A DNA stretch of 64,000 nt from Escherichia coli (GCF_030013205.1 NZ_CP122648.1), one strand, 5' to 3'. Shown: positions 1-19,683, numbered from the stretch's first letter. Notes: generated by a model from the letters alone, not told the origin. Translations and numbers: made by a program.

Positions 1-273
1 AAAGATCTTCGGGTTGATAAGCGTGAAACCAGTAACCTTTTTCTTCTTCGGGAGTTTCTGGTCCGTCGGCGCGGAAAGTGGTTACGGGAGGGATTTGTAT
101 ATACCCATAATGACAACGTGCAAACTCAGATATATTTTTCCTGATTTGTTGATAGGTGGCATTAAAAGCATGAAGAATCGCTTCGCCAGGTTTTTTGGGG
201 GTGATGATTTCACATTGTGATTTCTGAACAGCAGTAAGAGATTTACGCTCAAGTGTTTGCCGTAGATGTTCTG
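1..273 (-). CDS. Partial gene of unknown function, truncated by the window edge and by IS1
   Basis: Hand translation of the minus strand shows one frame open across 1-273 (peptide ...PEHLRQTLERKSLTAVQKSQCEIITPKKPGEAILHAFNATYQQIRKNISEF...); the + strand 68-aa ORF here looks spurious. The reading frame runs into the first base of IS1. Confidence 0.3.
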
Positions 274-328
274 GGTGATGCTGCCAACTTACTGATTTAG
301 TGTATGATGGTGTTTTTGAGGTGCTCCA

Positions 329-604
329 GTGGCTTCTGTTTCTATCAGCTGTCCCTCCTGTTCAGCTACTGACGGGGTGGTGCGTAACGGCAAAAGCACC
401 GCCGGACATCAGCGCTATCTCTGCTCTCACTGCCGTAAAACATGGCAACTACAGTTCACTTACGCCGCCTCTCAGCCCGGTACGCACCAGAAAATCATTG
501 ATATGGCCATGAATGGCGTCGGATGTCGCGCCAGTGCACGCATTATTGGCGTTGGCCTCAACACGATTTTCCGCCACTTAAAAAACTCAGGCCGCAGTCG
601 GTAA
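329..604 (+). CDS. insA: IS1 InsA (transposition repressor / N-terminal part of InsAB' transposase)
   Basis: 91-aa [43 protein letters not shown]... (zinc finger plus HTH); A6C slippery motif near 580-586. Confidence 0.9.
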
Positions 605-1026
605 CCTCGCGCATACAACCGGGCAGTGATGTGATTGTCTGCGCTGAAATGGACGAACAGTGGGGCTACGTCGGTGCTAAATCACGTCAGCGCTGGCTGT
701 TTTACGCGTATGACAGGATGCGGAGGACGGTTGTGGCGCACGTCTTCGGTGAACGCACTCTGGCCACACTGGAGCGTCTTCTGAGCCTGCTGTCGGCCTT
801 TGAGGTCGTGGTATGGATGACGGATGGCTGGCCGCTGTATGAATCACGCCTGAAGGGAAAGCTGCACGTTATCAGCAAGCGTTATACTCAGCGCATTGAG
901 CGGCATAACCTGAATCTGAGACAACATCTGGCAAGGCTGGGACGGAAGTCACTGTCGTTCTCAAAATCGGTGGAGCTGCATGACAAGGTCATCGGGCATT
1001 ATCTGAACATAAAACACTATCAGTAA
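523..1026 (+). CDS. insB: IS1 InsB reading frame (expressed as the InsAB' fusion by -1 frameshift)
   Basis: 167-aa ORF overlapping the insA 3' end in the -1 frame; sequence ...[22 protein letters not shown]... Confidence 0.85.
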
Positions 1027-1036
1027 GTTGGAGTCA

Positions 1037-1648
1037 TTACCCAATTTTTGAACTGTCTTTAAGATGAATATTACGGATAAGAAAACGAATGTAGTTATCG
1101 TTTTTAGATTCCCAGTGCGTATATTTACCAACTATGCTATTATTTTCTGACTGCCAGTGATCGAATGCTGTCTGTCCACTTATATTTTTATGATTAATGT
1201 CGCAACCAGCCTCAATTAGTGCATCGTACACATATCCTTCAAATGGAATGAAAAGAAAGGAATTGCCATAGCTATCTTTGGTATGGATATCTAGTCCTGC
1301 TTTGATAAGATATTTTACTAACCCTGGTGAAACATCAATATGTTGAATCGCAAGGGTGCCTGACTTATTCCGGTGGTTAACATTAATACCATTGCTGACA
1401 AGAAGTTCCACTGTTTCAACATTTTGAGCATAGAATAATGCATTATTACCGTCATTATCCAAGTGGTGAATGTCAATGTCAGCGTCAATCATTGCCTGTA
1501 TAGCTTCAGGTACATTACAGGTAAAAAGAGCAGTTTGACCTTTACTATTGCACATATTTATATCCATGCCAGCCTTAAGGCAACGAAGGACACCATTTTT
1601 AGACTTTACACGGAATAGGTTATTTTTATTATTTTCTCTTGATATCAT
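1037..1648 (-). CDS. Ankyrin-repeat protein; its stop codon lies inside the IS1 terminal repeat, so the C-terminus may be truncated
   Basis: 203-aa ORF with repeated ankyrin-like units (GQTALFTC..., DGNNALFYAQ..., SGTLAIQH..., YGNSFLF..., SGQTAFDHW); stop codon at 1037-1039 is within the last 5 bp of IS1; AT-rich DNA. Confidence 0.7.
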   Translation of the reverse strand: MISRENNKNNLFRVKSKNGVLRCLKAGMDINMCNSKGQTALFTCNVPEAIQAMIDADIDIHHLDNDGNNALFYAQNVETVELLVSNGINVNHRNKSGTLAIQHIDVSPGLVKYLIKAGLDIHTKDSYGNSFLFIPFEGYVYDALIEAGCDINHKNISGQTAFDHWQSENNSIVGKYTHWESKNDNYIRFLIRNIHLKDSSKIG

Positions 1649-2167
1649 TGTTTATCTCCTTTTTTGTTGTTTTCAAGATATTAATGACACCAGATTTTAC
1701 GGTATTCAAATTTATTTTTGTTTTATTAGGGGGTATCTGATTTGGTTTGCTTAAGGTTATTCTTAACTTAATGGAACATAGGGACGTTAAGGTTATCCTA
1801 TGTGATGTGGATTAACCATTTTCACAAGAATATTTATCCATATTGGAACTAATCTGTATAAAGGAGATAATTAGAGGCTCAGATATTAATACTATAGAGA
1901 GTAATGCTATAGGATATGGAAAAGATCATGTAATATAATGGTGGTTATTAATGTTCATCTTAATTTTGGAAATTAAATGAGTAGTGTTTTTTATGAGGTT
2001 TTTTGCTGTTGATAATTCTTATTAAAATTTGAAGAGCATCCTTTAAGTTATTCGGCTTGAGGATGCTCATTTAAAATTTAAGCAGCGTAGTCTTTTTCAA
2101 CAGCCAGGAAGGGGTGATGCTGCCAACTTACTGATTTAGTGTATGATGGTGTTTTTGAGGTGCTCCA

Positions 2168-2569
2168 GTGGCTTCTGTTTATATCAGCTGTCCCTCCTGT
2201 TCAGCTACTGACGGGGTGGTGCGTAACGGTAAAAGTACTGCCGGACATCAGCGCTATCTCTGCTCTCACTGCCGTAAAACATGGCAACTGCAGTTCACTT
2301 ACACCGCTTCTCAACCCGGTACGCACCAGAAAATCATTGATATGGCCATGAATGGCGTTGGCCTCAACACGATTTTACGTCACTTAAAAAACTCAGGCCG
2401 CAGTCGGCAACCTCGCGCATACAGCCGGGCAGTGACATCATCGTCTGCGCGGAAATGGACGAACAGTGGGGCTACGTCGGGGCTAAATCGCGGCAGCGCT
2501 GGCTGTTTTACGCGTATGACAGGCTCTGGAAGACGGTTGTTGCGCACGTATTCGGTGAACGCACTATAG
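2168..2569 (+). CDS. insA: IS1 InsA variant (11-aa deletion, read-through)
   Basis: [19 protein letters not shown]...[16 protein letters not shown] lacks [11 protein letters not shown] and continues past the usual stop (TAA changed to CAA). Confidence 0.7.
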
Positions 2570-2832
2570 CGACGCTGGAGCGTCTTATGAGCCTGCTGTC
2601 ACCCTTTGACGTGGTGATATGGATGACGGATGGCTGGCCGCTGTATGAATCCCGCCTGAAGGGAAAGCTGCATGTAATCAGCAAGCGATATACGCAGCGA
2701 ATTGAGCGGCATAACCTGAATCTGAGGCAGCATCTGGCACGGCTGGGACGGAAGTCGCTGTCGTTCTCAAAATCGGTGGAGCTGCATGACAAAGTAATCG
2801 GGCATTATCTGAACATAAAACACTATCAATAA
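2455..2832 (+). CDS. insB: IS1 InsB frame of the variant copy
   Basis: 125-aa [30 protein letters not shown]..., near-identical to copy 1 InsB. Confidence 0.7.
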
Positions 2833-2877
2833 GTTGGGACCATTACCAAATAGTTTATATGCTAAAAATTTAGGGAA

Positions 2878-5800
2878 TCATTTTCCTAATTCTCCAGCTA
2901 AAAGTTCAGCCTGCTTCAAAACAGTCTCTGTGGCGAGCAATGACATATCAGGCGGATAACCATATTTTTTGAGCAGACGTTTTACCACCACGCGAATTTT
3001 TGCTCTTGCTGCTTCTTTCACTGTCCAGTCAAGACTGACATTGTTGCGGATAGCCTCCGTAAGTACGACTGCCAGTTCTCGTAGTTTTTCCTTTTCCATT
3101 AACTCGCGAGCACTGTCGTTATCTGCAACAGCAGAATAGAAGGCATATTCATAAGCGCTGAGGTTTAACTGGCTGGCAAGGCTGTCAGATTCCTGGATAG
3201 TCTTGGCAAGCTTGATTAGCTCATCAATTACCTCCGCTGCGGTCAGTACCTTGTTCTGGTAGCCATTGATTGCAGAGGTCAGCATATCAATCAGTTTTTT
3301 GCCTTGGGTGATACTTTGATTCGAGCGAACCTTGATCTCGTCAGAAAGCAGTTTTTTAAGCGTTTCCAAAGCAATATTTCTGTGTTGGTAATCCTTCATT
3401 TCCTGAAGGAATTCTTCAGAAAGAACGGAAATATCAGGTTTTTGTATCCCAGCAGCGTCAAAAATATCAACAACTTTATCGGTAACCAGAGCCTGATCGA
3501 TAGTCTGTTTTACCCGAACTTCGAGACTGTCATTGTGTTCTTCTTCTGATCCGTCTGAGTTTTCAGTAAATTTATTCAGTCTGGCTTTTACTGCCTGGAA
3601 GAATGCTACTTCGGGTGCCGCTTCCATTGCTTTATCGTGCGGTGTCGCCAATGCAAATGCCTGCGATAAGGCTGCAACCGCAGCGAGGAAACGCATTTTA
3701 CCTTTACCGTTATCCAGCCCTAAAATATGGTTTTCTGATTCAAGAATAATTGTCAGGCGTTGTGAGGTAGTTGCGGCAAAGTAAGCTTTGTAATCGTATC
3801 CATGCATCATGCCTTCCAGGATTTCCAGCTTTTCCTGCATGAGCGTTACGGCTTCTTCCTGAACCTCAGCAGGATCTCCACGTCCACCTGCATCAGAGTA
3901 AAAGGAGAGGGCTTCTTTTAAATCAGAGGCAATGCCCAGATAGTCAACAACCAGACCGCCTATCTTATCTTTATACACACGGTTCACACGGGCAATTGCC
4001 TGCATAAGGTTGTGGCCTTTCATTGGTTTGTCGATATACAGCGTATGCATGCTGGGAGCGTCGAAGCCGGTTAACCACATATCACGCACTATCACCAGTT
4101 TCAGCTTGTCGTCGTCATCCTTCATACGGTTAGCCAGAACCTGACGTTCTTTTTTTGTGGTGTGGTGTTTGGCAATTTCTGGCCCGTCAGCAGCAGAAGA
4201 GGTCATGACGACTTTTATTATACCGTCATTTAAATCATCGCTGTGCCATTCAGGTTTTAAGGCTATGATTTCTTTATATAGTTCAGCAGCAATACGGCGG
4301 GACATGGTAACAATCATGCCCTTACCATGATCGGCATTGGATTTTAAGCGCTGCTCAAAGTGCAGAACCATATCCGCCGCAATCGCTTTAATACGTTTTG
4401 AACTGCCAATCAAACCTTCGATTCTGGCCCATTTAGAACGTTCTTTTTGCGTGAGCGTCAGTTCGTCCTCGTTAAACTCATCATCAAAGTCTTCAATAAG
4501 CTGACGACCTTCATCACTGATGGCAATTTTGGCAAGACGGCTTTCATAAAAGATACGAACTGTTGCACCATCTTCAACGGCCTGCGAGATATCGTAGATA
4601 TCAACATAGTTACCAAAAACAGCAGGCGTGTTGACGTCCGTTTTTTCTATGGGGGTTCCGGTAAAGCCGAGATAGGTCGCATTAGGTAAGGCATCACGCA
4701 TATATTTGGCAAAGCCGTAAACGGTGCGTTTACCTGTTACGTTGCCTTCGCTGTCTTTCACGTCAACTTCTTTGGCGCTGAAACCGTACTGGGAACGGTG
4801 TGCTTCATCAGCGATAACGACAATATTGGTTCTGTCTGACAACAACTCATAGATATTGCTGCCATCATCAGGCTGGAATTTTTGAATAGTAGTAAACACC
4901 ACACCGCCAGAGGCGACACGCAAATATTCTTTGAGTTCTTCCCGGTTGTTGGCCTGTTTTGGTGTCTGACGAAGTAGCTGGGTCGCGGAAGAGAACGTAC
5001 CGAATAGCTGATCATCTAAGTCGTTACGGTCAGTAATCACAACAACTGTCGGATTATCCAGCGCCAGCACAATTTTCCCGGTATAAAACACCATCGAAAG
5101 CGATTTACCGGAACCCTGAGTATGCCAGACTACGCCCGCTTTGCGATCTCCGGTTTTTTGCGCATTAACAAGATCTTTACTGTTACGTCCCTGCTGGCGC
5201 AGTGCCACTTCGGCAGAGGGGGAGTCCGCATTCACCGCTGAGGCACGAATAGTGGAAAGAACTGCTGCATTGACCGCGTAGTACTGGTGATAAGCCGCCA
5301 TTTTTTAACAGTACGGATACTGATAATCCCTTTGCTGTCTTCATGTTTGCTGGCCTCAAACACGATAAAGTGGCGGATTATATCCAGCAGCGTTACAGGA
5401 TTAAGCAACCCCTGTAATAAAACTTCAAGCTGTGGTTGGGTACTGGTGGCTTGCGTTTTACCGTTAGCAGTTTTCCACGTCATATAACGACTGAAATCGG
5501 CAGAAACCGTCCCCGCTTTGGCTTCCAGCCCGTCAGATATCACATTAAAAGCATTGTAGTTAAACAGACCGGGGATTTGGTTCTGATAGGTTTTAATCTG
5601 ATTATAGGCACCTGTTACCGTTGCATTTTCGTCAGCGGCATTTTTAAGTTCGATAACGACTAATGGCAGGCCATTGATGAATAAAATAAGATCAGGTCGG
5701 CGGGTATGGTTGCCTTCTTTGATGGTGAGCTGATTAATGACCAGAAATGCATTATTAGTGGGATCGTTAAAGTCGATCAGGCTGGCCAGTTCTCCTTGTG

Positions 5801-7368: not shown

Positions 7369-8912
7369 AAAACCACCTTCGCCAGATTATCAACGATGGC
7401 TCTGTTCAGACGCGCCTCTTCTTCCAGTTGCGCTTCAAACTCAGCTTTAAGAGCCGTAAAGCGTTCTTTAAAGTCGAAATCGTCTTCTTCATCAGCAAGA
7501 CCAACATAACGGCCAGGTGTCAGCACATAATCGAGTTTAGCAACTTCAGCAATGTCTACTGACGCACAGAAACCAGCGACGTCTTCGTAGTCGCCACCTT
7601 TGTTACGCCAGTTATGATAGGTATCAGCGATGGTTTTTATATCGTCGTCAGAAAGTACTTTGGTACGACGATTAATTAAATGACCGAGATTACGGGCATC
7701 AATAAACAGAATTTCTTTACTACGATCACGATACTGGTTGCTGTTATGACGGTCACGGCGCATAAACCATAATGCAGCAGGGATCTGAGTATTCAGGAAC
7801 AGCTTTGCCGGTAAGTTGACGATACAGTCAATCACATTGGCATCTTTTACCAGTGCAGCACGAATATCACCTTCACCAGAGCTTTTAGAAGTTAATGCCC
7901 CTTTTGCCAGAACAACACCCGCTTGCCCTTTAGGAGACAAGTGATACAAAAAATGTTGCATCCATGCAAAGTTAGCGTTGCCAGCAGGTGGAATGCCATA
8001 TTGCCAGCGGGCATCACCACGAAGCTGCTCACCAGACCAGTCGGAAACGTTAAACGGTGGGTTAGCTATGATAAAATCAGATTTCAAATCTTTGTGAGCA
8101 TCGTTAAGAAATGAACCTTCATTATTCCAGCGAACGTGTTCAGAATTAATCCCACGAATTGCCAGGTTCATTTTTGCCAGACGCCAAGTGGTCTGGTTGG
8201 ACTCCTGCCCATAGATCGAAATATCGTCAATATTTCCCTGATGTGCTTCTACAAATTTTTCTGACTGAACGAACATACCACCAGAACCACAGCAGGGATC
8301 AAAGACACGGCCTTTATAGGGTTCCAGCATGTTAACCAGCAGGCTTACAATAGATTTTGGCGTATAGAACTGGCCGCCTTGTTTGCCTTCTGCCAGTGCA
8401 AATTCACCTAGGAAGTATTCGAATACGTGACCTAAAACGTCAGCAGAGCGTGCTTTGGCATCTCCTAGTGCAATGTTGCCAATCAGATCTATCAGCTCAC
8501 CCAGAACAGTGGCGTCGAGGTTTTGTCGGGCATAGACTTTCGGCAACACACCTTTTAACTGTGGATTGCCCGCTTCGATAAGCTCCATCGCATCATCAAC
8601 CATCTTACCGATTTCAGGAAGCTTGGCCTTAGAAATCAGATAGTTCCAACGTGCAAGCTCAGGGACAAAGAAAACGTTGTAAGCGGTGTACTCGTCTTTG
8701 TCTTCCGGATCAGCACCTGCGAACTCGCCTTTACCGGCTTTCAGCAACTCATAATGAGATTCAAAAGAATCAGAAATGTACTTAAGGAAAATGAGGCCTA
8801 GTACGACGTGCTTGTACTCGGCTGCATCAATGTTTTTACGCAGTTTGTCTGCCGCTTTCCACAGGATGACCTCTAACGGGTCTGTTTTGATTTCTTTAGG
8901 TTTTCTGGCCAT
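7365..8912 (-). CDS. hsdM: Type I R-M N6-adenine DNA methyltransferase subunit (HsdM)
   Basis: 515-aa ORF with SAM-binding [11 protein letters not shown] and catalytic NPPF motifs. Confidence 0.9.
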
Positions 8913-9075
8913 TAGCGTAACCTTATGAAGGGGGAAGATGGCCCTATTTTGCCTTAAAGTTCCGCTTGTTACGAGCTTATACAGCGATTAATTATTATCT
9001 GGTTTTAGTGTGTTCGTGTAGCTCAGCAAGTGCAATGACTCATGGAGTAAATGCTTTGTAGCGGGATTGTAGATG

Positions 9076-9393
9076 TCAGGTCATTGCCGTCAATGGAGCC
9101 AGTGTCATTGGCATAATTGCTGCACAGCCGATGCCACGCGCACATTCGCTAGTTCACTGTGGTTCATCGTGTGTACTACACCAGTACGCAGTCCGGGAAG
9201 TAACGGCATGGCAGAATCGTTTGTAAAGACGTTCAAGCGGGATTATGTGTACGTAGATGATCTGCTGGATGCAGTCTAAATGATGGAAACAATGGCAGAA
9301 TAGATAGAGGATTATAATAATCTGCATCCACACAAGGGGTTGAACATGAAATCGCCACGCGAATATCGTGATGCCATATTAGCAGTTAATTAG
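9076..9393 (+). pseudogene. IS2-like (IS3 family) transposase 3' remnant, truncated and interrupted by stop codons
   Basis: Translation ...VRSPGSNGMAESFVKTFKRDYV... then, after stops, ...IEDYNNLHPHKGLNMKSPREYRD... matches the C-terminus of IS2 InsD as I recall it ([20 protein letters not shown]...YNEWHPHSALGYRSPREY). Confidence 0.55.
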
Positions 9394-10508
9394 CCGTGTC
9401 CGTTTTAGCAGGGACAACTCCAGTATTCAAAAAAGCTTTCTTAGTGCATATGCATGAGGTGAATAGATGTACAGGCTATGACAAACCATAGTTGTAATTT
9501 TTAATGTTTAAAATTCTCCGTTACAGTAGGACATTCCTTGTACATTAAATTCCATCTAAGGTTGAATTTTTAATTTAATAAGGTCGCAATCTAAAATGAT
9601 GTGTATGGGGTTATTTGTAAGATGATTTTTTATTTTTGATAGTGGTGATTAAGGGAGCGGGTAATGTTTGTCTATTCAAAAATATAGAGATTCAAGGTTG
9701 GTAGCAGTTTGGCTTCTTTTATAACCGAAGGGCAGAAAAGCAAGGGGAACTCGAAGAAGCAAGCGCAGCGGCTTCGCAGAGTTAGCCCTTGCTTCTCTTA
9801 TAATTGGCATTATTCATTCAAGAACAATAGGATCTTCGCTTGTACAAGCGAAGCTATAATAAAAACAATCAATTAATAATTTTAAAAGTATTAAACAAGA
9901 ACCTATTGACATTCATAAAATACAAGTTATTTATAATGTATGCCATAAATAAAAAGTTTTATGTCATATGTATCCTGCACTATGTGCAGTTAATGTACCA
10001 CTTGTCCCATAGATGGGAATATTGGAAAGGTTACTTTGTTTTGAAGTAGCCTTTCGTCCTTCAATATTAACGATTACTTATTGCTATTACCAAGTCCAGT
10101 CGAATCGAAGAACATCTTTTATCTGAAACGACTCCTAATACCCGGTTAAAGCCACAATATCTCTCGCATACGTAGACCAAAGAAAAATTATGATATTAAC
10201 TATGTGATTTTTTTTAGTGTTAAGTTGAATAATTAAATACTGGAGAGTTTTCTGTGCACTACCAATTGCTGGTTCATCTGTTCTGCCGCTGATGTTTCTG
10301 ACGAATCTCCCGGTGACACAGAACTGTCCCTCTCTACCAGCCTTTATTCGACTCAATGTCCGGCTGCTGATACGCAGTTATCCCTTCGTATCAATGACTG
10401 ACACTTAAACGTAATGCTTTGGTTGCTGGCGTATCTGACAGCTTCTTCGGCGTGAAGGTCGTTGTGTAAGTATACTTCTTGGTTTATTTAGGCTATATAA
10501 AACCATGA

Positions 10509-11405
10509 CTATGACTTGCTGTTTTCAGTAAGAGTCTTATCATCCAAAGAATTTATTCTAGAAATTCTTTTTAACTCATTAAGATAATCAACCTCGTTTT
10601 CTAAGAACCAATGAAGAACTTTAGAATTGCCAAGTAATTTATTAATATATGACTGGATTATAACGAATTTCAACATATCTGAACCATACTCGGTTTGAAG
10701 CTTTTTCGTTTCTTCCGAAGTTGTTGCCATTTCTTGTTCCAGACGAAGTATGGTTTTTTTTATGTCCTTTTTATAGGGAGTGTTTTTCCCTTTATTTACT
10801 ATCATCGATGCCGGTGTTGCATCCAAGATGCTCATTGCAAATTTTTTACTATAATTATCAAAATTAATCATTGTACCGACTGCTTCAATTTGGCGAATTG
10901 GCTTCATTTTCCTCAAAACGTCAAATGTAGCCTTAGGTATAGGTTTATCAGAAAGTTTCGCAATTACACTTGGATCTATGCCGTTCATCACATTCGCTTT
11001 ATCTTTTATGGCATCAACAGATATGCCCAAAGCAGCACTAAGTTTTTCAATTGATACTTTTGCCAGAGACTTAATTATCATTCTATGTTCTTCAACTACA
11101 TTTATATGATTCACTTGTTTGTTAGGAGTGAAAGCATCATCTATGCTCGAAAGTATACATGGAGCTTTTTCTATACCTAAGTCTTTTAAAGCCTCAACCC
11201 TTAAATGGCCATCAAGTATCTTAGTGACATCTTTATCTTTGTCATAGAATACTATTATTGGTTCAATAATACCTAAGCTTTCGATAGAGGTAACTATTTG
11301 ATGATATTTATGGCTTCGCTTTACGTTTTCTAATAATTCCTTAGATGGAATTAACTTATTAGTTTCCAGGTAAATAAAATTATCGCCAAAACGTATCTGA
11401 ATCAT
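10509..11405 (-). CDS. ParB/Srx-family protein (second of two tandem paralogues)
   Basis: 298-aa ORF; N-terminal ParB-like motif ...KILDGHLRVEALKDLGIEKAPCIL...; K/N/I-rich; start overlaps the upstream gene stop. Confidence 0.6.
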   Translation of the reverse strand: MIQIRFGDNFIYLETNKLIPSKELLENVKRSHKYHQIVTSIESLGIIEPIIVFYDKDKDVTKILDGHLRVEALKDLGIEKAPCILSSIDDAFTPNKQVNHINVVEEHRMIIKSLAKVSIEKLSAALGISVDAIKDKANVMNGIDPSVIAKLSDKPIPKATFDVLRKMKPIRQIEAVGTMINFDNYSKKFAMSILDATPASMIVNKGKNTPYKKDIKKTILRLEQEMATTSEETKKLQTEYGSDMLKFVIIQSYINKLLGNSKVLHWFLENEVDYLNELKRISRINSLDDKTLTENSKS

Positions 11406-12298
11406 TTTAATACCTCTTTGTTTACTGGGGTTAATATCTGAGATGGTAGTTCTGAAAGATTCTCTTGTTCAAGTATATGTTGAAAGCTTTTATTTATCAT
11501 TATGATGTTAAAAATCTCATTTACTATTAGTAGGTTGGTTTTTATGAATTTTGAGTTGTTATAAACAGATTTATGTTCAGCGATACTATTTTCATAAAGC
11601 TCAATCAACTCCTCTGCAGTCATCCTTTTTGATGGTTTGTGATAATAAAATCCGGCTGCTTTTGCACCTTTATTCCCAACTGTTCTTTGATTTAGAATGT
11701 GTTTTATCTTTATAATGTCCCGACTTTTTATTAATTTTTTATCATATGCTTCGGTAAGAATATCTTGTGCTTCCTCAGTTTCACATCTTGCAAATTGCAC
11801 TGCGAGATACAGAGGCAAATTACCCCGTTCGACTGCTGAGAGAAGTTTATGCTCTCCCTTATCAAGTAGCATATTAATACTGCTCACCCAGTTCGATGAA
11901 TATCCAGTAATCTCACTTATTTCGGAGTCTGAAAGTCCTCTGATTTTCATGTCTTTAATCACCTGTAATAACTCATTAGAACGTGGTCTTCTCCTTGCAA
12001 TGTTTTCAACTAAACTCATAACGTAAGCATCTTCTTCTGATACATCTCTTATAATTGCTGGAATAATAGTTTCACCTAATGCAACGAGAGCCTCTATTCT
12101 CCCTTGACCACAAATTAAAGCATATTTGAAATCGCCTTCATCAATAGCTCTTACGCTTATTGGCTTGCTTAATCCTCTTTTTTTTATGCTTTCCTTTATT
12201 TCTTCATGCACTACCTTATTTCTTGTTCGTGGGTTAAGAAATTTTATTTTTGCAATCTCAATTTGAATTATTGGGAATTCATTTTTTTCAGGCAGCAT
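11402..12298 (-). CDS. ParB/Srx-family protein (first of two tandem paralogues)
   Basis: 298-aa ORF; ...KPISVRAIDEGDFKYALICGQGRIEALVALGETIIPAIIRDV...LVENIARR... resembles ParB box regions followed by an HTH-like segment; no ParA partner adjacent. Confidence 0.6.
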   Translation of the reverse strand: MLPEKNEFPIIQIEIAKIKFLNPRTRNKVVHEEIKESIKKRGLSKPISVRAIDEGDFKYALICGQGRIEALVALGETIIPAIIRDVSEEDAYVMSLVENIARRRPRSNELLQVIKDMKIRGLSDSEISEITGYSSNWVSSINMLLDKGEHKLLSAVERGNLPLYLAVQFARCETEEAQDILTEAYDKKLIKSRDIIKIKHILNQRTVGNKGAKAAGFYYHKPSKRMTAEELIELYENSIAEHKSVYNNSKFIKTNLLIVNEIFNIIMINKSFQHILEQENLSELPSQILTPVNKEVLK

Positions 12299-13844
12299 AT
12301 AGTTCCCTCACTTTCATGCGAGTAATAATTTGTAGAAGTTTATCAAGATTATCAAATCTATAGAGATCTAATCGAATGTTGTTTGTTTCCGTCATGCACA
12401 TTTTATTATATTCGTTTTCAATCTTTGGTATGATATAAAAATCAAGAGGTGAAATATTTTGTGAATTCATTCGTATAACAATTGTTATGTCTGCTTTCTG
12501 TGAGTTATCAAACCGGACTTTCCATCTAAGTTTACCTGATTTCATATGTATGCATTTAGTAACAAGGACGGAAATTAAAAACTCATCATTGATGTAAAGC
12601 ATTGGGGCATATTTATACTCGTCTATATGACAGTTACTTTTTAAAATTTCACCCTTAAAATCCTCAATTATCTCTGAGTAAAATGATCTTAGTGCTTCAT
12701 TTATTTTGAGATAGCTGTAATCATGTTCTGGCTTATAACCAATCAAAGTATATGCTCTTAAAAGACCACCAAATCGGGTTCTATAAACAGAAGATGAAGG
12801 GCCTGTATCATCTTCATCAATGATAAAGCCTGATAGTTTTCCATTAGATTCTAATTTTTGTTTTAGTTTTTCTAATAGATCTTCATTAGTCAAATGAATG
12901 GATCGGAGCTGAATTATTTCTTGAGCTTTATTGTATTTTTTCTTTGAAATAATAGGTTTATATGCCTTGTCACATCTAACCCATTCATGTTTGGGGTTTT
13001 TTACAAGCCTACTTTTTAATTTAGATGAGGTTTTGTTATATATGTTGTTTCCAATATATTTTTCATTTGTCAAAATTTGATGTATTTTTGCACGAGTCCA
13101 TAATGTTCCATTTTCTGCAGGTATGTTCTGTTCATTTAATCTCTCAGCAATAATGAATTCTGGGACGTTATTATCTATAAAGAGATCATATATTCTATTT
13201 ACAATTTTTATTTCATTTTTTGGTCCCGGAATTAATATTACCCTATCTGTTTGAATACTCTTTCTTTTGCGGAAACTCAATATTTCTTTAGCTATGCCAT
13301 TTTCGTCTACTAAAAGACGTCTCAGCCCATAACCAGCCATACCGCCTTGATGATAACCAAGCTTTATTAAATTTACTTGCCCTATAAATACCTTTTCAGA
13401 TAGATTCCTGCTGTGATATGCAGCACTAGATCTTTTTATATTCAGTATAACAGAGGACTCTAAAGGGAAATCTTTAGTGGGTATAGGTTCGGAACAATAT
13501 ATAAGATCTACACCATTTCTCTCAAATAGAAAGGAATAATATGCCGCTTCATCACTATTTTGAAAACGACCAAAACGGCTCACATCATAAAATAATACAG
13601 CCTGTATATCTATTTTCTTTTGTTCTACATCGCTAAGTAACTGCTGCAAAGAATGCCTGCCTACGATACTGACTCCGCTCTTACCTGCATCATCGTAGGT
13701 ATAAGCGATTTCCATATTGTTCTTTTCAGCATAATCTTTGATATATTCGGACTGATTATGTAAAGAATATTGCTGATGGTCGGTAGACATCCTCAAGTAC
13801 TGCGCGACCCTAACTCTATGATTTTTGTCATTTTCGCTAGCCAT
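12288..13844 (-). CDS. Large serine recombinase (resolvase/invertase catalytic domain plus C-terminal recombinase domain)
   Basis: 518-aa ORF; N-terminus VAQYLRMSTDHQQYSLHNQ... carries the catalytic-serine motif typical of serine recombinases; overlaps the downstream ParB-like gene by 11 nt. Confidence 0.7.
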   Translation of the reverse strand: MASENDKNHRVRVAQYLRMSTDHQQYSLHNQSEYIKDYAEKNNMEIAYTYDDAGKSGVSIVGRHSLQQLLSDVEQKKIDIQAVLFYDVSRFGRFQNSDEAAYYSFLFERNGVDLIYCSEPIPTKDFPLESSVILNIKRSSAAYHSRNLSEKVFIGQVNLIKLGYHQGGMAGYGLRRLLVDENGIAKEILSFRKRKSIQTDRVILIPGPKNEIKIVNRIYDLFIDNNVPEFIIAERLNEQNIPAENGTLWTRAKIHQILTNEKYIGNNIYNKTSSKLKSRLVKNPKHEWVRCDKAYKPIISKKKYNKAQEIIQLRSIHLTNEDLLEKLKQKLESNGKLSGFIIDEDDTGPSSSVYRTRFGGLLRAYTLIGYKPEHDYSYLKINEALRSFYSEIIEDFKGEILKSNCHIDEYKYAPMLYINDEFLISVLVTKCIHMKSGKLRWKVRFDNSQKADITIVIRMNSQNISPLDFYIIPKIENEYNKMCMTETNNIRLDLYRFDNLDKLLQIITRMKVRELYAA

Positions 13845-14014: not shown

Positions 14015-14064
14015 TATGTGGACTCAATGTCCCCATTTGTAAATGGCTATGCTTAGTCCACATA
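14015..14064. repeat. Inverted repeat TATGTGGACT ... AGTCCACATA (10-bp arms, about 30-bp spacer) upstream of the serine recombinase gene
   Basis: Seen directly in the sequence (approximate coordinates); lies in the 282-bp gap between the serine recombinase and the integrase. Confidence 0.5.
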
Positions 14065-14126: not shown

Positions 14127-15356
14127 TTATGCGGCCATAACTTTGCATTTTTGAGACGAAACATAGTCACTCCACCATTGCATGAGAACCACCCGTTCAG
14201 TGAGATACTCTGCACGATTGTAGGCTGCAATTATTTCATCTTTCTTCGAGTGGGCAAGGGCGGCTTCTAAGACATCAGTCCTAAACTTGCCAGACTCCTC
14301 AGCAGCCGTTCTAGCAATGGATCGCATACCGTGAGCTACAAGCTCACCTCCGAAACCCATACGGATTATGGCCGCATTAGCTGTTTGTTCATGCATGTGA
14401 TTGAGTGGAGCTTTGATACTGGGGAACACCCACTCTCTATGCCCGCTGATGACTTTCATTAAATCCAAAACTCGCAAAGCTTCTTTGCTCAGTGGAACTT
14501 TGTGAGGCTTCTTCATTTTCATAAACTCCGCCGGGATGTTCCACATGCCAGTTTCAATATCAATATCTGACCATCTTGTGCGAACAGCTTCACCTGGGCG
14601 AACCCATGTGAGAAGTTGCCACTCAATCAGTAGCCTTGTTTCCAAACGGATAGAAGCATTGTTTAGAGCAACCAAGAAGCGAGGGAGTTCGGAAGGGGGT
14701 AATGCTGGCATATTCTGTTTTTTTGGCTTGCTGAACCGTTGCCCCAGGTTGTCTGCCGGGTTGAATTCTATGAGTTCTTCTGTTGCTGCATAGCGGAAAA
14801 TTTCATTCAGGCGGGATATGATGCGGCGAAGTGTTTCAAGGACACCTCGTTTTTCTATGGGTTCTAAATGCTGTTTAAGCATTTTAGGGCGAATCTCCTT
14901 AATTGGGGTATCACCCAATGTGGAAAAGATATTTCTCTCTAGGCTTCGCCAGATGTCGTTAGCATGATCTTGGGAGATGCCTGACGTTTTGACTTTCTCA
15001 TCAAGCCACTTCTTGGCTACTGCTTGAAATGTATGTTCCGTGGCATCTTTCAGTGCATTGGCTTTTTGGTTGTTATGAACTTGGGGGTCTATACCATTTG
15101 TAAGCAACGACAAGTATTCATCACGTAAAGCTCGTGCCTTCGCAAGTGTAAGGTGAGGATAGGTTCCTAAGCTCACCTTAGTTCGCTTTTTGGTCACAGG
15201 CACTGCATATCTGAAATACCAATTTTTCTTCCCTCCCTTCGCCAGGGGAGCGATTCGCAACAGCAAACCATCGCCGTCAAAAAGGTTAACCTCTTTTTCG
15301 GCAGGTTTGGTGCTTTTGATTTCAGTGTCAGTGAGCTTCTTAGCGATTTTGGCCAT
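14127..15356 (-). CDS. intA: P4-type tyrosine integrase (IntA-like) at the 3' end of ssrA
   Basis: ORF 14127-15437 (GTG start in the track); probable start at 15356 (MAKIAKKLTDTEIK...), matching the N-terminus of CP4-57 IntA as recalled; conserved ...HGMRSIARTAA... region. Confidence 0.85.
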   Translation of the reverse strand: MAKIAKKLTDTEIKSTKPAEKEVNLFDGDGLLLRIAPLAKGGKKNWYFRYAVPVTKKRTKVSLGTYPHLTLAKARALRDEYLSLLTNGIDPQVHNNQKANALKDATEHTFQAVAKKWLDEKVKTSGISQDHANDIWRSLERNIFSTLGDTPIKEIRPKMLKQHLEPIEKRGVLETLRRIISRLNEIFRYAATEELIEFNPADNLGQRFSKPKKQNMPALPPSELPRFLVALNNASIRLETRLLIEWQLLTWVRPGEAVRTRWSDIDIETGMWNIPAEFMKMKKPHKVPLSKEALRVLDLMKVISGHREWVFPSIKAPLNHMHEQTANAAIIRMGFGGELVAHGMRSIARTAAEESGKFRTDVLEAALAHSKKDEIIAAYNRAEYLTERVVLMQWWSDYVSSQKCKVMAA

Positions 15357-15522
15357 GTTTGGGACCCTCGATTTTAGGACCCATCTTCGTGGGTCCCATT
15401 CAGGGTGCCATAACTCGTAGTTCTCAGCAATTCTCACTAGACTACAATAGACGTAAAAAAGCCCGCAGAGCTTGTGCTGTGCGGGCTTAGTAGACTTTAC
15501 TGAACTTCAGTACATCAATATT

Positions 15523-15885
15523 TGGTGGAGCTGGCGGGAGTTGAACCCGCGTCCGAAATTCCTACGTCCTCGGTACTACATGCTTAGTCAGTCTTTACAT
15601 TCGCTTGCCAGCTGCGGACGGACACGCCACTAACAAACTAGCCTGATTAAGTTTTAACGCTTCAACCCCAGGCAGGGCTTCCACGCGATCTCTTTTGGGT
15701 TTGACCTCTCTTGATCCCCGTCCTAAGAGCGGAGGCTAGGGAGAGAGGGCTCTAAGCAGGTTATTAAGCTGCTAAAGCGTAGTTTTCGTCGTTTGCGACT
15801 ATTTTTTGCGGCTTTTTACGAGGCCAACCGCCCCTCGGCATGCACCTTGGGTTTCGCAAATCCCGTCGAATCCAGAATCAGCCCC
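15523..15885 (-). ncRNA. ssrA: tmRNA (SsrA), 363 nt
   Basis: Reverse complement begins GGGGCTGATTCTGGATTCGACGGG and ends ...GGGTTCAACTCCCGCCAGCTCCACCA; the tag-template region is present. Confidence 0.95.
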
Positions 15886-16099
15886 AATGTGTAACGGCAA
15901 GTATACCAGATTTATGAGCGCCATGACCAGCCTCAATGGCGTTATCGTTAAAGATTTAGCACCCATGTAGCCTGATTTTTATTCGATTAAGCAATGGGAT
16001 GGCAACATTTGTGTCGGATGTGATAGCCAATAAGATGTTCATTCGCGCCGCCGGAGAGGGAGGCGCGGTGAGGAACTGGTCAATAATTGGAGTGCAGGT

Positions 16100-16582
16100 T
16101 TAACGGTGGGCGTTTTTCATGATACGCGCTTTATCCACCTGCCATTCGCGCTCTTTGATATCTGAACGTTTATCGTGCTGTTTCTTACCTTTGGCGACGC
16201 CGATTTTCACTTTGCACCAGGCATTTTTCCAGTACAGGGAGAGCGCCACTACGGTATAGCCTTCTCGATTGACGCGACCGTACAATGAGTCCAGTTCGCG
16301 CTGGTTGAGAAGTAACTTGCGGGTACGGGTAGGATCGCACACCACATGCGTGGAGGCCACGGCCATTGGCGTGATGTTAGCGCCAAACAGAAATGCCTCT
16401 CCGTCACGCAGAAGGACGTAGCTGTCGCTGATATTGGCTTTTCCTGCGCGCAGGGATTTAACCTCCCAGCCTTGCAGGGCAAGTCCCGCTTCGAACTCTT
16501 CTTCGATAAAGTATTCGTGACGGGCGCGCTTGTTAAGCGCGATGGTCGCTGAACCAGGTTTATGTGCTTTTTTCTTCGTCAT
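16100..16582 (-). CDS. smpB: SsrA-binding protein SmpB
   Basis: 160-aa [48 protein letters not shown]... Confidence 0.95.
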
Positions 16583-16713
16583 AAGCGTCGTGAATCATCG
16601 GTAATCTGAAATCGAAAACACCCCATATCAATCCTGCGGGGGACAAGGCTCTATCTTAGCATGAACCCGATGTTACCCAGCGCCGGGATAGCGTTTTTTT
16701 TACAGCAGGATAA

Positions 16714-18021: not shown

Positions 18022-19683
18022 TTACGCCGCAAGCAGTTCTTTCGCATTCGCCAGTGTGTTACGTGTGACTTCACTGCCACCAAGCAGGCGCGCCAGCTCT
18101 TGTAACCGCGCTTTTTTATCCAGGGATTGCATATGCGTTTCTGTCATCGCACCATCGGTTTCTTTGCTGACAAAATAGTGTTGATGACCACATCCCGCGA
18201 CTTGTGGCAAGTGGGTAACACACATCACCTGAGTTGATTCGCCAAGTTGACGCAGCAGTTTGCCGACAACTGCCGCTGTTGGACCGCTAATCCCTACATC
18301 CACTTCATCAAAAATCAGTGCCGGGGTTTCCATTTTACGCGCCGTGATGACCTGAATTGCCAATGCGATGCGGGACAATTCACCACCGGATGCAACTTTG
18401 GCAATAGGCTGCATTGGCTGACCTGGGTTGGTGGTTACCCGAAACTCAATACGATCAGCGCCGTCAGCGCCCAGGTGATGCTCGTCAAATTTAATATCGA
18501 TCGTAAACTGCCCATGTGGCATAGAGAGCGCATGCATACTTTTGGTGATCAGCTGTGCCAACTCATTTGCATAATGCTGGCGTTGCAGGTGTAATGCGTG
18601 CGCGGTTTCCAGTGCCTGCTGATGATGTTTCGTTACCGCCAGCGCGAGCGTTTCTTGTGAGTCGGCCTGATCGTCCAGTTGCTGCTGTTCTTCCAGTAGC
18701 GACTGGTAATACTGTGGCAATGCCTCAGGGCTGACGTGATGTTTACGTGCCAGCGAAATCTGTTTTGAGATGCGCTGTTCAAGTTCAAACAGTCGGTTGG
18801 GATCGAGATCCAGACGATCGCAGTAGTGGCGCAGTTCATCGCTGGCTTCAGTAATCTGGATGGTAGCTTCTTCCAGCATATCAAGTACGCCGGACAGTTT
18901 GCTGTCCATGCCAATCAATTCGCTCACCAGTTGTTTAGCCGTGTAAAGCTGACTTTGCAGGTTTGCGTCTTCACCGTCGGCCATTACTGCCAATGCATTC
19001 TGGCTGGTAGTCAGCAATTGACCGCTGTTCGCCAGACGTTTGTACTCTTCGTCGATTTGCTCAAACTCTCCGGGCTGCGGATTAAATTCGTTAAGTTCTT
19101 TTAATTGGTATTGCAGCAGTTCTGCACGGGCGGCGCGTTCCTGACTTAACTGTTGATGATGCGCGAGGTCACGGCAGCTTTGATGCCACAACTGATAACG
19201 TGCGGTCATTTCCTGGAGTAGAGAGGTTTCATTGGCATAGCCATCAAGCAGGAATTTTTGGTGCTCGGGTTTGGTGAGTAACTGATGAGCGTGCTGACCA
19301 TGGATCTGAATCAGCAACTGACCCAGTTCGCGCAGTTGTGAAAGAGGAACCGCTGTACCGTTGATAAAACCACGGGAGCGACCATCGCTGCTGATTACGC
19401 GACGAAGCAAACATTCATGCCCGTCTTCAAGCTGGTTTTCTTCCAGCCAGCGCAGGGCCGCTGGCGTATCTTTCAGAGAAAAACGGGCGCACAGGTCGGC
19501 ACGAGCAGCGCCGGTACGCACCATGTCGGCTTCAGCGCGACCACCGAGACAAAGGCCGAGGGCATCTATTGCAATAGATTTACCCGCGCCGGTCTCGCCA
19601 GTTATTACGGTCATGCCGCTATGAAAATCAATCTCAAGCTCACGAACGATAGCAAAGTTGCTGATGGTCAGTTGTGCCAACAT
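18022..19683 (-). CDS. recN: DNA repair protein RecN
   Basis: 553-aa [54 protein letters not shown]... Confidence 0.95.

Follow-up and report, generated by a model that had tools for sequence, protein, structure and literature searches.

A nested hairpin at 9739-9793 in a 64,000-nt stretch of Escherichia coli DNA (GCF_030013205.1, NZ_CP122648.1; the whole stretch is referred to as the window) is probably the core of an origin of transfer (oriT) that belongs to an ssrA-type mobilizable island and has lost its relaxase gene in this strain. The hairpin is found in the spacer between restriction-modification (R-M) genes and a module that consists of two ParB-family genes and a large serine recombinase (LSR) gene. 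It would represent an oriT family of integrative mobilizable elements (IMEs) of the Enterobacterales, which integrate at ssrA and other hotspots and whose mobilization (mob) genes encode a NikA-like accessory protein and a MobA/VirD2 relaxase. These relaxases are related to the MOBP relaxases of IncQ2 plasmids. Within the core, the inner hairpin is presumed to be the recognition element for the relaxase or the accessory protein, and the trailing AGCCCTTG/C (a slash within a nick-region motif marks the predicted nick) would be the nick region.

An earlier note on this DNA described a nested stem and a perfect 20-bp palindrome, CTTCGCTTGTACAAGCGAAG, and both the sequences and the coordinates proved correct. 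Hairpin and palindrome each have one copy in the window by pattern search. The hairpin pattern did not occur in any of 100 shuffles. No perfect palindrome of 20 bp or longer other than CTTCGCTTGTACAAGCGAAG is present in the window, and in 200 block shuffles such palindromes averaged 0.045 per shuffle, 8 of the shuffles having at least one. If the limit is lowered to 16 bp, one more perfect palindrome appears in the window, at 19564-19579. Folding of the 181-nt region beats that of its shuffles on both strands (z = -2.9 on the + strand and -5.1 on the - strand), and the G+C content is 0.58 in the hairpin and 0.50 in the palindrome, as compared with 0.33 in the surroundings (9400-10250). The spacer had been described as 1.1 kb of AT-rich non-coding DNA. 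It is not uniform, and includes a remnant of an IS3 element, a structured block and a section of 48% G+C at 10250-10470.

The earlier note regarded the element as acting in cis, with a link to the mobility of the island, and as distinct from generic repeats, and copy number agrees with the last point. E. coli genomes have a median of 1 copy and never more than 2, and a test for REP/ERIC-like sequences was negative; thus the sequence does not behave as a common repeated extragenic family. A small RNA had also been proposed for the hairpin. No Rfam family matched it: in a scan of 8900-10700 with Rfam 15, at E values up to 1, the sole match was a chance-level one to snoR30 (20.5 bits against a gathering threshold of 60, E 0.25).

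Twenty-eight distinct copies of the core were aligned (alignment A1). The inner stems are 97-99% paired, and five base pairs have changed on both sides. Thus AACTC/GAGTT also appears as AACCC/GGGTT and AACTT/AAGTT, and GAAGC/GCTTC as GATGC/GCATC and GTATC/GATGC. None of 500 shuffles reached the observed covariation score, and in a control in which the 3′ partner was slid by 1-3 columns, pairing was found in just 28-49% of the cells. The outer stem, on which the earlier note had laid its emphasis, is present, but the covariation is in the two inner stems; the outer stem shows none in A1 and displays A.C at one position in 14 of the 28 copies. The 3′ arm of the outer stem is invariant, which suggests that its sequence is under constraint rather than its pairing. 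Also invariant in A1 is the A-run at 9735-9738. A covariance model (R1) derived from the 28 copies has a single match in the window, with 93 bits, and it recovers the independently ascertained locus L041 with 50 bits and an E value of 2e-9 (loci are designated by L numbers).

The right flanks of the core are unrelated between islands, and in the lineage of L005 and L025 the left flanks are unrelated as well. Loci L005, L025 and L026 have extra genes between the mob promoter and the core, which leaves variable DNA on both sides. The core is therefore a discrete element of about 80 bp, 9717-9793.

A sensitive BLAST search with 9690-9900 detected the core region, in single copy, in 564 of 5,426 complete E. 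coli genomes. A megablast search with the spacer gave no plasmid matches, and among the E. coli matches the core is never plasmid-borne. The weakest matches (76-87% identity) span just 9714-9794, i.e., the hairpin, and in the islands concerned the hairpin is situated directly upstream of a small gene and a gene annotated as “relaxase/mobilization nuclease”. Pfam assigns the latter to the MobA/VirD2 Relaxase family (E 1e-23), and the small gene shows a weak match to NikA-like ribbon-helix-helix proteins. A pattern scan with one genome per species found the core in 24 species of Enterobacterales, from Escherichia relatives, Klebsiella, Citrobacter, Enterobacter and Salmonella to Pantoea, Erwinia, Pectobacterium, Brenneria and Serratia. 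A pattern scan of metagenomes yielded 23 loci, one of which (L063) is a chance match.

Linkage to the mob genes was read by tblastn in about 18 loci that have enough left flank. In most, the distance from the core leftward to the start of the NikA-like gene is 119-139 nt, and in four the distance is up to about 290 nt; the relaxase gene lies beyond the NikA-like gene in nearly all. DNA of the relaxase family is present in 371 E. coli genomes (full length in 130), compared with the 564 that have the core. The closest plasmid relaxases, at 36% identity, are encoded by IncQ2 and other small plasmids and are of MOB-suite type MOBP. A sequence search of the PDB with the relaxase gave no match.

The 3′ end of the core, GTTAGCCCTTG/C, is kept even where the relaxases are only 45-49% identical. 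In addition, the motif follows differing inverted repeats upstream of relaxases that are 36-49% identical, as TTTTAGCCCTTGCTCC in L043, GGTTAGCCCTCGCTCC in L044 and AGTCATACCTTGC in L041. Locus L041 shares the left half of the core, has a different repeat (AAGAGAAGC/GCTTCTCTT) and then displays the motif. The repeat of L043, AAAATA...TATTTT, is unrelated to that of the core and is followed by AGCCCTTGCTCC. In L044, AACC...GGTT precedes AGCCCTCGCTCC, and this distant locus has a matching outer-stem change on both sides, T>C together with A>G in the left outer arm. Plasmid counterparts are GGTTACACCTTGCTCC (IncQ2, L035 and L038), AGTTACACCTTGTT (pTM18-1, L037) and GGGATTACACCTTGCC (p48947CZ_1); here also an inverted repeat precedes the motif, at the same place upstream of the mob operon. 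The motif of the core resembles the equally placed GGTTACACCTTGC of IncQ2 (MOBP) plasmids.

Variable repeats beside a conserved nick region are a hallmark of oriTs within a MOB family (PMC3772185). This layout is what is found here. A covarying repeat is immediately 5′ of the conserved motif, and AGCCCTTGC-like motifs come after unrelated repeats in L041, L043, L044, IncQ2 plasmids and pTM18-1. By this comparison the + strand would be nicked between G9791 and C9792. The 3 nt after the GCTT beside the predicted nick (9793-9797; also in L045-L067) are hypervariable among sequences that otherwise hardly differ, with CTC, CTT, GTC, ATC, TTC and ACC all represented, and the next 60 nt are conserved.

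Several points weigh against an oriT. The consensus MOBP nick region is (C/T)ATCCTG(C/T) (PMC3772185), and the canonical MOBP11/MOBP2 nick core ATCCTG is not present; CCCTTG is found instead, which is nearer to the IncQ2-type ACACCTTG. The likeness to the IncQ2 motif is one of sequence and position, and a literature search found no nicking or transfer data for this putative oriT family. The invariance of GTTAGCCCTTGC in A1 is partly imposed by the search pattern. Loci were therefore re-ascertained by way of the relaxase protein, whereby family representatives at 45-49% identity were placed on contigs and the upstream DNA was read. It should also be noted that in the sub-lineage of the window the core is 2-9 kb from the mob operon and not directly upstream of it. 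As for the palindrome, its arms do not vary and so provide no evidence for either a hairpin or a protein site. The sharp module boundary at the core, described below, could come about by ordinary recombination in conserved flanks. Finally, a hairpin with a U-run and converging genes suits a plain terminator equally well.

The last point deserves a fuller account. If the hairpin served solely as an insulator or an intrinsic terminator, which might be bidirectional, it would stop minus-strand cargo transcripts before they reach the mob promoter and would have no role in transfer. On the minus strand, the long G+C-rich stem runs into TTTTCT in the window and into 4-7 T in relatives, the corresponding A-run of the + strand is invariant, and covariation is equally compatible with an RNA stem. 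The nearest open reading frame of at least 120 aa reads toward the core in 21 of 26 distinct right flanks (loci L002-L033), often with its stop 1-30 nt away. (In L002 and L023 the stop codon of the cargo gene overlaps the CTT/AAT junction.) However, a terminator does not need a sequence-specific 3′ motif, and this motif is kept after wholly different stems, upstream of relaxases that are 36-49% identical and on plasmids as well. Moreover, it is the outer stem, the one beside the U-run, that is mismatched in half of the copies; a consensus terminator scan found none here, and conservation extending 20 nt past the U-run (AACCGAAGGGC) would be left without explanation. A terminator and nothing else is thus quite improbable. 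Given that the cargo genes point at it and that its minus strand continues into a U-run, the hairpin probably terminates cargo transcription in addition to serving as the putative oriT core.

Coordinates of the core and of the neighbouring features are in Table 1.

Table 1. Features of the core and its surroundings in the window
Feature	Position	Strand	Description
Conserved core, probable oriT	9717-9793	+	about 80 bp; T-run, AACCGAAGGGC, A-run, nested inverted repeat, nick-region motif
Outer arms AGCAAGGG and CCCTTGCT	9739-9746 and 9786-9793	+	delimit the hairpin 9739-9793
Outer stem, left arm GCAAGGG	9740-9746	+	pairs with CCCTTGC, 9786-9792; on the minus strand TTTTCT follows, terminator-like architecture
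Inner inverted repeat	9748-9783	+	AACTC/GAGTT (9748-9752 and 9779-9783), GAAGC/GCTTC (9756-9760 and 9771-9775), variable loop
CGAAG and CTTCG pair	9752-9756 and 9772-9776		inside the nested hairpin
Nick-region motif AGCCCTTG/CT	9784-9793	+	predicted nick G9791/C9792
Leading-side conserved block	9797-9860		sub-lineage-specific; ends with the palindrome and TATAAT
Palindrome CTTCGCTTGTACAAGCGAAG	9834-9853		perfect, 20 bp; 41 bp right of the predicted nick; arms invariant
Structured non-coding module	9903-10063	+	TTGACA, 20 nt, TATAAT-like hexamer, four hairpins; island backbone between integrase and oriT
IS3-family transposase pseudogene	9124-9393	+	between hsdM and the oriT core; RefSeq on identical DNA of L001: [quoted passage not shown]
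Cargo cassette: ParB/RepB-like, ParB/RepB-like, LSR	10509-13844	-	Pfam ParB_N and RepB twice, Resolvase and Recombinase; reads toward oriT
Tyrosine integrase, P4-type with arm-binding domain	14127-15437	-	Pfam Arm-DNA-bind_3, Phage_int_M, Phage_integrase

The window contains the core without its mob genes. In intact relatives, i.e., metagenome contigs and E. coli O157:H16 strain 98-3133 (L068), the order is integrase, LSR, ParB, ParB, structured module, palindrome, core, 2-9 kb of cargo, nikA and relaxase. The core and right flank of the window are identical or near-identical to those of L047 and L068, both of which encode nikA and the relaxase (in L068 at 14974-16613). In 98-3133 an ankyrin gene immediately precedes nikA. 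The strain of the window has the same ankyrin gene, then insertion sequence (IS) IS2, and then the core gene ygaQ, as annotated in identical DNA; this annotation also places IS2 and then core genes to the left of the window end. No relaxase or NikA-like gene was found in the whole window by tblastn, in a search that was not aimed at mating-pair genes. As the ankyrin gene abuts IS2, and as the window is without a relaxase or NikA-like gene, the mob module has been deleted. The sequence visibly points to its recent removal by IS elements. With the mob genes lost, the putative oriT is an orphan that should be mobilisable only in trans, and it would work only where a conjugative helper and a related relaxase are supplied. 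A class of islands that retain an oriT but have no relaxase has been described, iOriT (bioRxiv 10.64898/2026.01.13.699239).

Were the + strand cut at the predicted position, transfer would proceed 5′-first and the DNA to the right of the core would enter the recipient first. The leading DNA would then comprise the palindrome, the structured module, the ParB/LSR cargo and the integrase, with the mob side entering last.

Homology between islands comes to an end 1-2 nt past the motif, after CCCTTGC(T), with unrelated DNA to the right. The right flanks of L002 and L023 are 99% identical, while their cores are only 80% alike and their left flanks are unrelated, and the same holds for L017 and L029; overall, cargo next to cores that are only 80% alike is 97-99% identical. 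Conversely, L002 and L004, L003 and L012, and the window and L008 have cores that are 98-99% identical and right flanks that are unrelated. The mosaic thus runs in both directions, and this confines the exchange point to AGCCCTTGC(T). Such a mosaic is what relaxase initiation and termination at two different oriTs would be expected to produce, and it suggests that the nick site is the place of cargo exchange. A more far-reaching proposal is that the relaxase itself swaps cargo between IMEs that are in tandem or co-resident, by initiating at one oriT core and terminating at another, with the palindrome and the module at 9903-10063 acting as leading-strand signals in single-stranded DNA. It would explain both the identical cargo beside cores that are 80% alike and the end of homology 1-2 nt past the predicted nick; we consider it rather unlikely all the same. 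If it is true, the nick site would be a docking point for defence and other cargo, and the palindrome and the module would serve priming or early expression and travel with the backbone.

The palindrome differs from the core in its distribution. The block 9797-9860, of which it is part, hardly varies between E. coli, Salmonella diarizonae and 22 metagenome contigs. The palindrome is found in one sub-lineage only, with invariant arms and a centre of either TGTACA or TGCACA, and the metagenome loci yielded no new variants. It is missing from lineages in which the mob operon is adjacent to the core. The palindrome is not part of the probable oriT core, and is better described as a conserved, sub-lineage-specific dyad in the predicted leading region.

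The leading hypothesis of the earlier note was that hairpin, palindrome or both are att-like sites of the neighbouring LSR. The LSR gene is within 2.5-4 kb, recombinase sites are commonly palindromic, and the core is a recombination junction between modules. However, the hairpin co-occurs with the mob operon with its relaxase and NikA-like genes, and is present in many islands and genera that have a relaxase but no adjacent LSR (L002-L004 and most other loci). The palindrome is found with the LSR/ParB cassette in islands of the window type and without LSR and ParB genes in those of the L005 type, which speaks against its being the site of these genes' products. It also falls outside the cassette, the limits of which are at most 10065/10185 to 14126, and is about 230 bp from the possible left boundary. 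The earlier note had considered the site together with a repeat at 14015-14064, with which neither palindrome nor hairpin has any sequence in common; nor is anything shared with other sequence near the LSR (the LSR/integrase intergenic region was searched). In addition, a palindromic central TA would lack polarity as an LSR crossover dinucleotide. A role for either element as an LSR site is hence extremely improbable. Judged by its occurrence, the palindrome is neither an LSR site nor demonstrably a ParB site. A parS site is a palindrome that accompanies its ParB, usually in several copies, and here there is one copy in the window, which is kept where ParB genes are absent.

The most probable roles of the palindrome are that of a binding site for a protein or that of a DNA or RNA hairpin which acts early after transfer. 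Two loci, L039 and L010, have two direct half-sites and a degenerate form, CTTCGATTGTGCAAGTGAAG, whose changes are uncompensated, at a greater distance from the core. This hints at a protein-binding motif more than at a hairpin. These loci (L039 at 5530-5730) also have two direct repeats of about 45 nt, GCTTC(G/A)CTT..ATT.ATTTTAAAG(G)CTTCTCTTGCAG. Direct repeats and degenerate palindrome together present several CTTCNNTTG motifs, so that the DNA from the oriT core to the structured module contains an iteron-like array.

A more specific proposal is that a DNA-binding protein encoded by the island uses the palindrome as an operator or a centromere-like site, whether a ParB/RepB-like protein at a parS-like site, a NikA-like ribbon-helix-helix protein or a helix-turn-helix regulator, with control of a promoter or assembly of a complex beside oriT as the outcome. 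A regulator binding site was among the suggestions of the earlier note; it did not hold for the hairpin and could apply to the palindrome only. A perfect dyad with invariant arms that tolerates change in its centre would fit an operator. In related islands the degenerate palindrome and the two direct half-sites, CTTC[GA][CA]TTG, with uncompensated changes from G-C to G-U and from C-G to A.G, resemble the drift of a binding site more than conservation of a hairpin. TATAAT-like hexamers flank the palindrome, and two ParB-family genes are nearby. However, there is a single site in the window, half-site searches were at chance level, the palindrome is retained where ParB genes are absent, and the mob promoter has no copy. 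Words of the oriT inner arms are not enriched near the palindrome, and no candidate protein was identified. An operator may thus be put forward only tentatively. A second accessory-protein site that repeats the oriT inner-arm words was rejected, as in no lineage do the 400 nt to the right show an enrichment of 7-mers from the inner hairpin. Two long-range pairings, 9825-9836 with 9897-9908 and 9798-9810 with 9940-9952, were also rejected; they are uncompensated in L005 or L025.

The structured module further to the right has 73% identity in L039, and three of its predicted pairs show compensatory changes in an alignment of four sequences. Insertions and deletions of 1-2 nt argue against coding, and no Rfam family matches the module. 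It could be a small RNA, form the structured 3′ end of the integrase transcript, or act as a single-strand initiation signal. A search by tblastn for an integrase gene fragment after the module in the window gave no match.

These elements may also be considered together. Hairpin, palindrome and module could form a small structured RNA or a single-strand initiation signal (ssi/Frpo-like) that primes the complementary strand or early transcription in the recipient. Folding of the region is strong (z = -5 as DNA), the hairpins of the module display compensatory changes, and the whole is within the predicted leading region, 50-270 nt from the nick. The TTGACA and TATAAT-like boxes have a conserved, non-canonical spacing of 20 nt, which as a promoter on duplex DNA is wrong for sigma-70. 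The lack of an Rfam match also counts against this proposal. Further, the structure of the module is backed by only 4 divergent sequences, the palindrome carries no covariation information, and an oriT core already accounts for the hairpin. Thus such an RNA or initiation signal is unlikely.

The window is chromosomal DNA, and the island around the putative oriT is composite. Identical DNA in strain UK_Dog_Liverpool bears no annotation at 9400-10500, and the annotated order there is ygaQ, IS2, the ankyrin gene, IS1, hsdR-S-M, the IS3 transposase remnant, the spacer, two ParB/RepB-like genes, LSR, the P4-type integrase, a further element and a prophage. With IS1 and IS2 flanking its R-M and ankyrin genes, the left part of the island has been reshaped by IS elements. 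An intact ISKpn34 is present in L039, about 100 bp further left than the IS3 remnant of the window. The ssrA gene directly adjoins the same integrase in L007, L009 and L039, and in this strain another element separates the two. The tmRNA gene, ssrA, is a known hotspot for IMEs (PMC10121019).

On the right, the ParB/LSR cassette is missing from L039 and from islands of the L005 type, which retain the neighbouring non-coding elements. As the structured module directly abuts the stop codon of the integrase in L039, the comparison shows the cassette to be an insertion between module and integrase, and it behaves as discrete cargo. PADLOC detected no defence system among the ParB, ParB and LSR proteins, just a weak methyltransferase-domain match for one ParB. 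The section at 10250-10470, which separates the AT-rich spacer from the end of the ParB gene, has no long open reading frame and looks like a gene remnant; in L006 a truncated fecA replaces the sequence from about 10370 onward. The repeat at 14015-14064, between the stop of the integrase and the start of the LSR, is an imperfect inverted repeat of 24 nt (TATGTGGACT...AGTCCACATA) that could be an integrase terminator or a signal of the LSR operon.

If the core is an oriT, an unannotated 80-bp element in about a tenth of complete E. coli genomes has a testable transfer mechanism, and a common ssrA island with R-M and other cargo, of which the integrase is the only visible mobility gene, has a mobility route. 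The cargo slots of this IME family would then lie on either side of the oriT core. It should be noted that IMEs, orphan oriTs and defence cargo beside oriT have already been described. The advance is thus an annotation and a hypothesis and not a new principle.

Among known systems, the oriT of IncQ2 (MOBP14) plasmids, of the pTF-FC2/pTC-F14 kind and represented here by pKPSH213.55 and p5MO13m20, is similar in its location upstream of the mob operon and in an inverted repeat followed by GGTTACACCTTGCTCC, compared with GAGTTAGCCCTTGCTT in the core. Both begin with CCGAAGGG about 70 nt upstream, and the relaxases are 36% identical and MOBP by MOB-suite. The element described here differs in being chromosomal and integrative, in a mob module of two genes versus the five of IncQ2, and in the sequence and length of the repeat. 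With the RP4/IncP oriT it shares a variable inverted repeat on the side of the relaxase operon, a short nick region ending in TG/Y and a leading region beyond (PMC3772185; 10.64898/2026.01.12.698999). However, the hexamer is CCCTTG and not ATCCTG, and the nick motif doubles as the 3′ arm of the outer stem.

Rho-independent terminators likewise have a G+C-rich stem followed by a U-run, here on the minus strand, just downstream of converging genes. Unlike these, the stem spans 55 nt and has internal loops, the sequence of the 3′ arm is kept across unrelated stems, and there is an extra conserved flank.

The PIMEs, IMEs of Pseudomonadota (bioRxiv 10.64898/2026.01.12.698999), are comparable in their element-specific inverted repeat by nic, their own genes of traJ/traI type and, next to the transfer module, a large region of accessory or defence genes. 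They differ in that they keep the IncP nic, integrate near guaA and carry repA/oriV, none of which is seen here. Islands of the iOriT/iMOB kind (bioRxiv 10.64898/2026.01.13.699239) have an integrase and an oriT that resembles those of relaxase-encoding IMEs, without a relaxase, as does the window, where mating-pair genes were not specifically searched. The defence-type cargo (Type I R-M) beside oriT and the tmRNA hotspot (PMC10121019) are further similarities. Described iOriT families have mostly been without a relaxase for long (bioRxiv 10.64898/2026.01.13.699239), whereas in the island described here the loss of the relaxase appears to be recent and mediated by IS elements.

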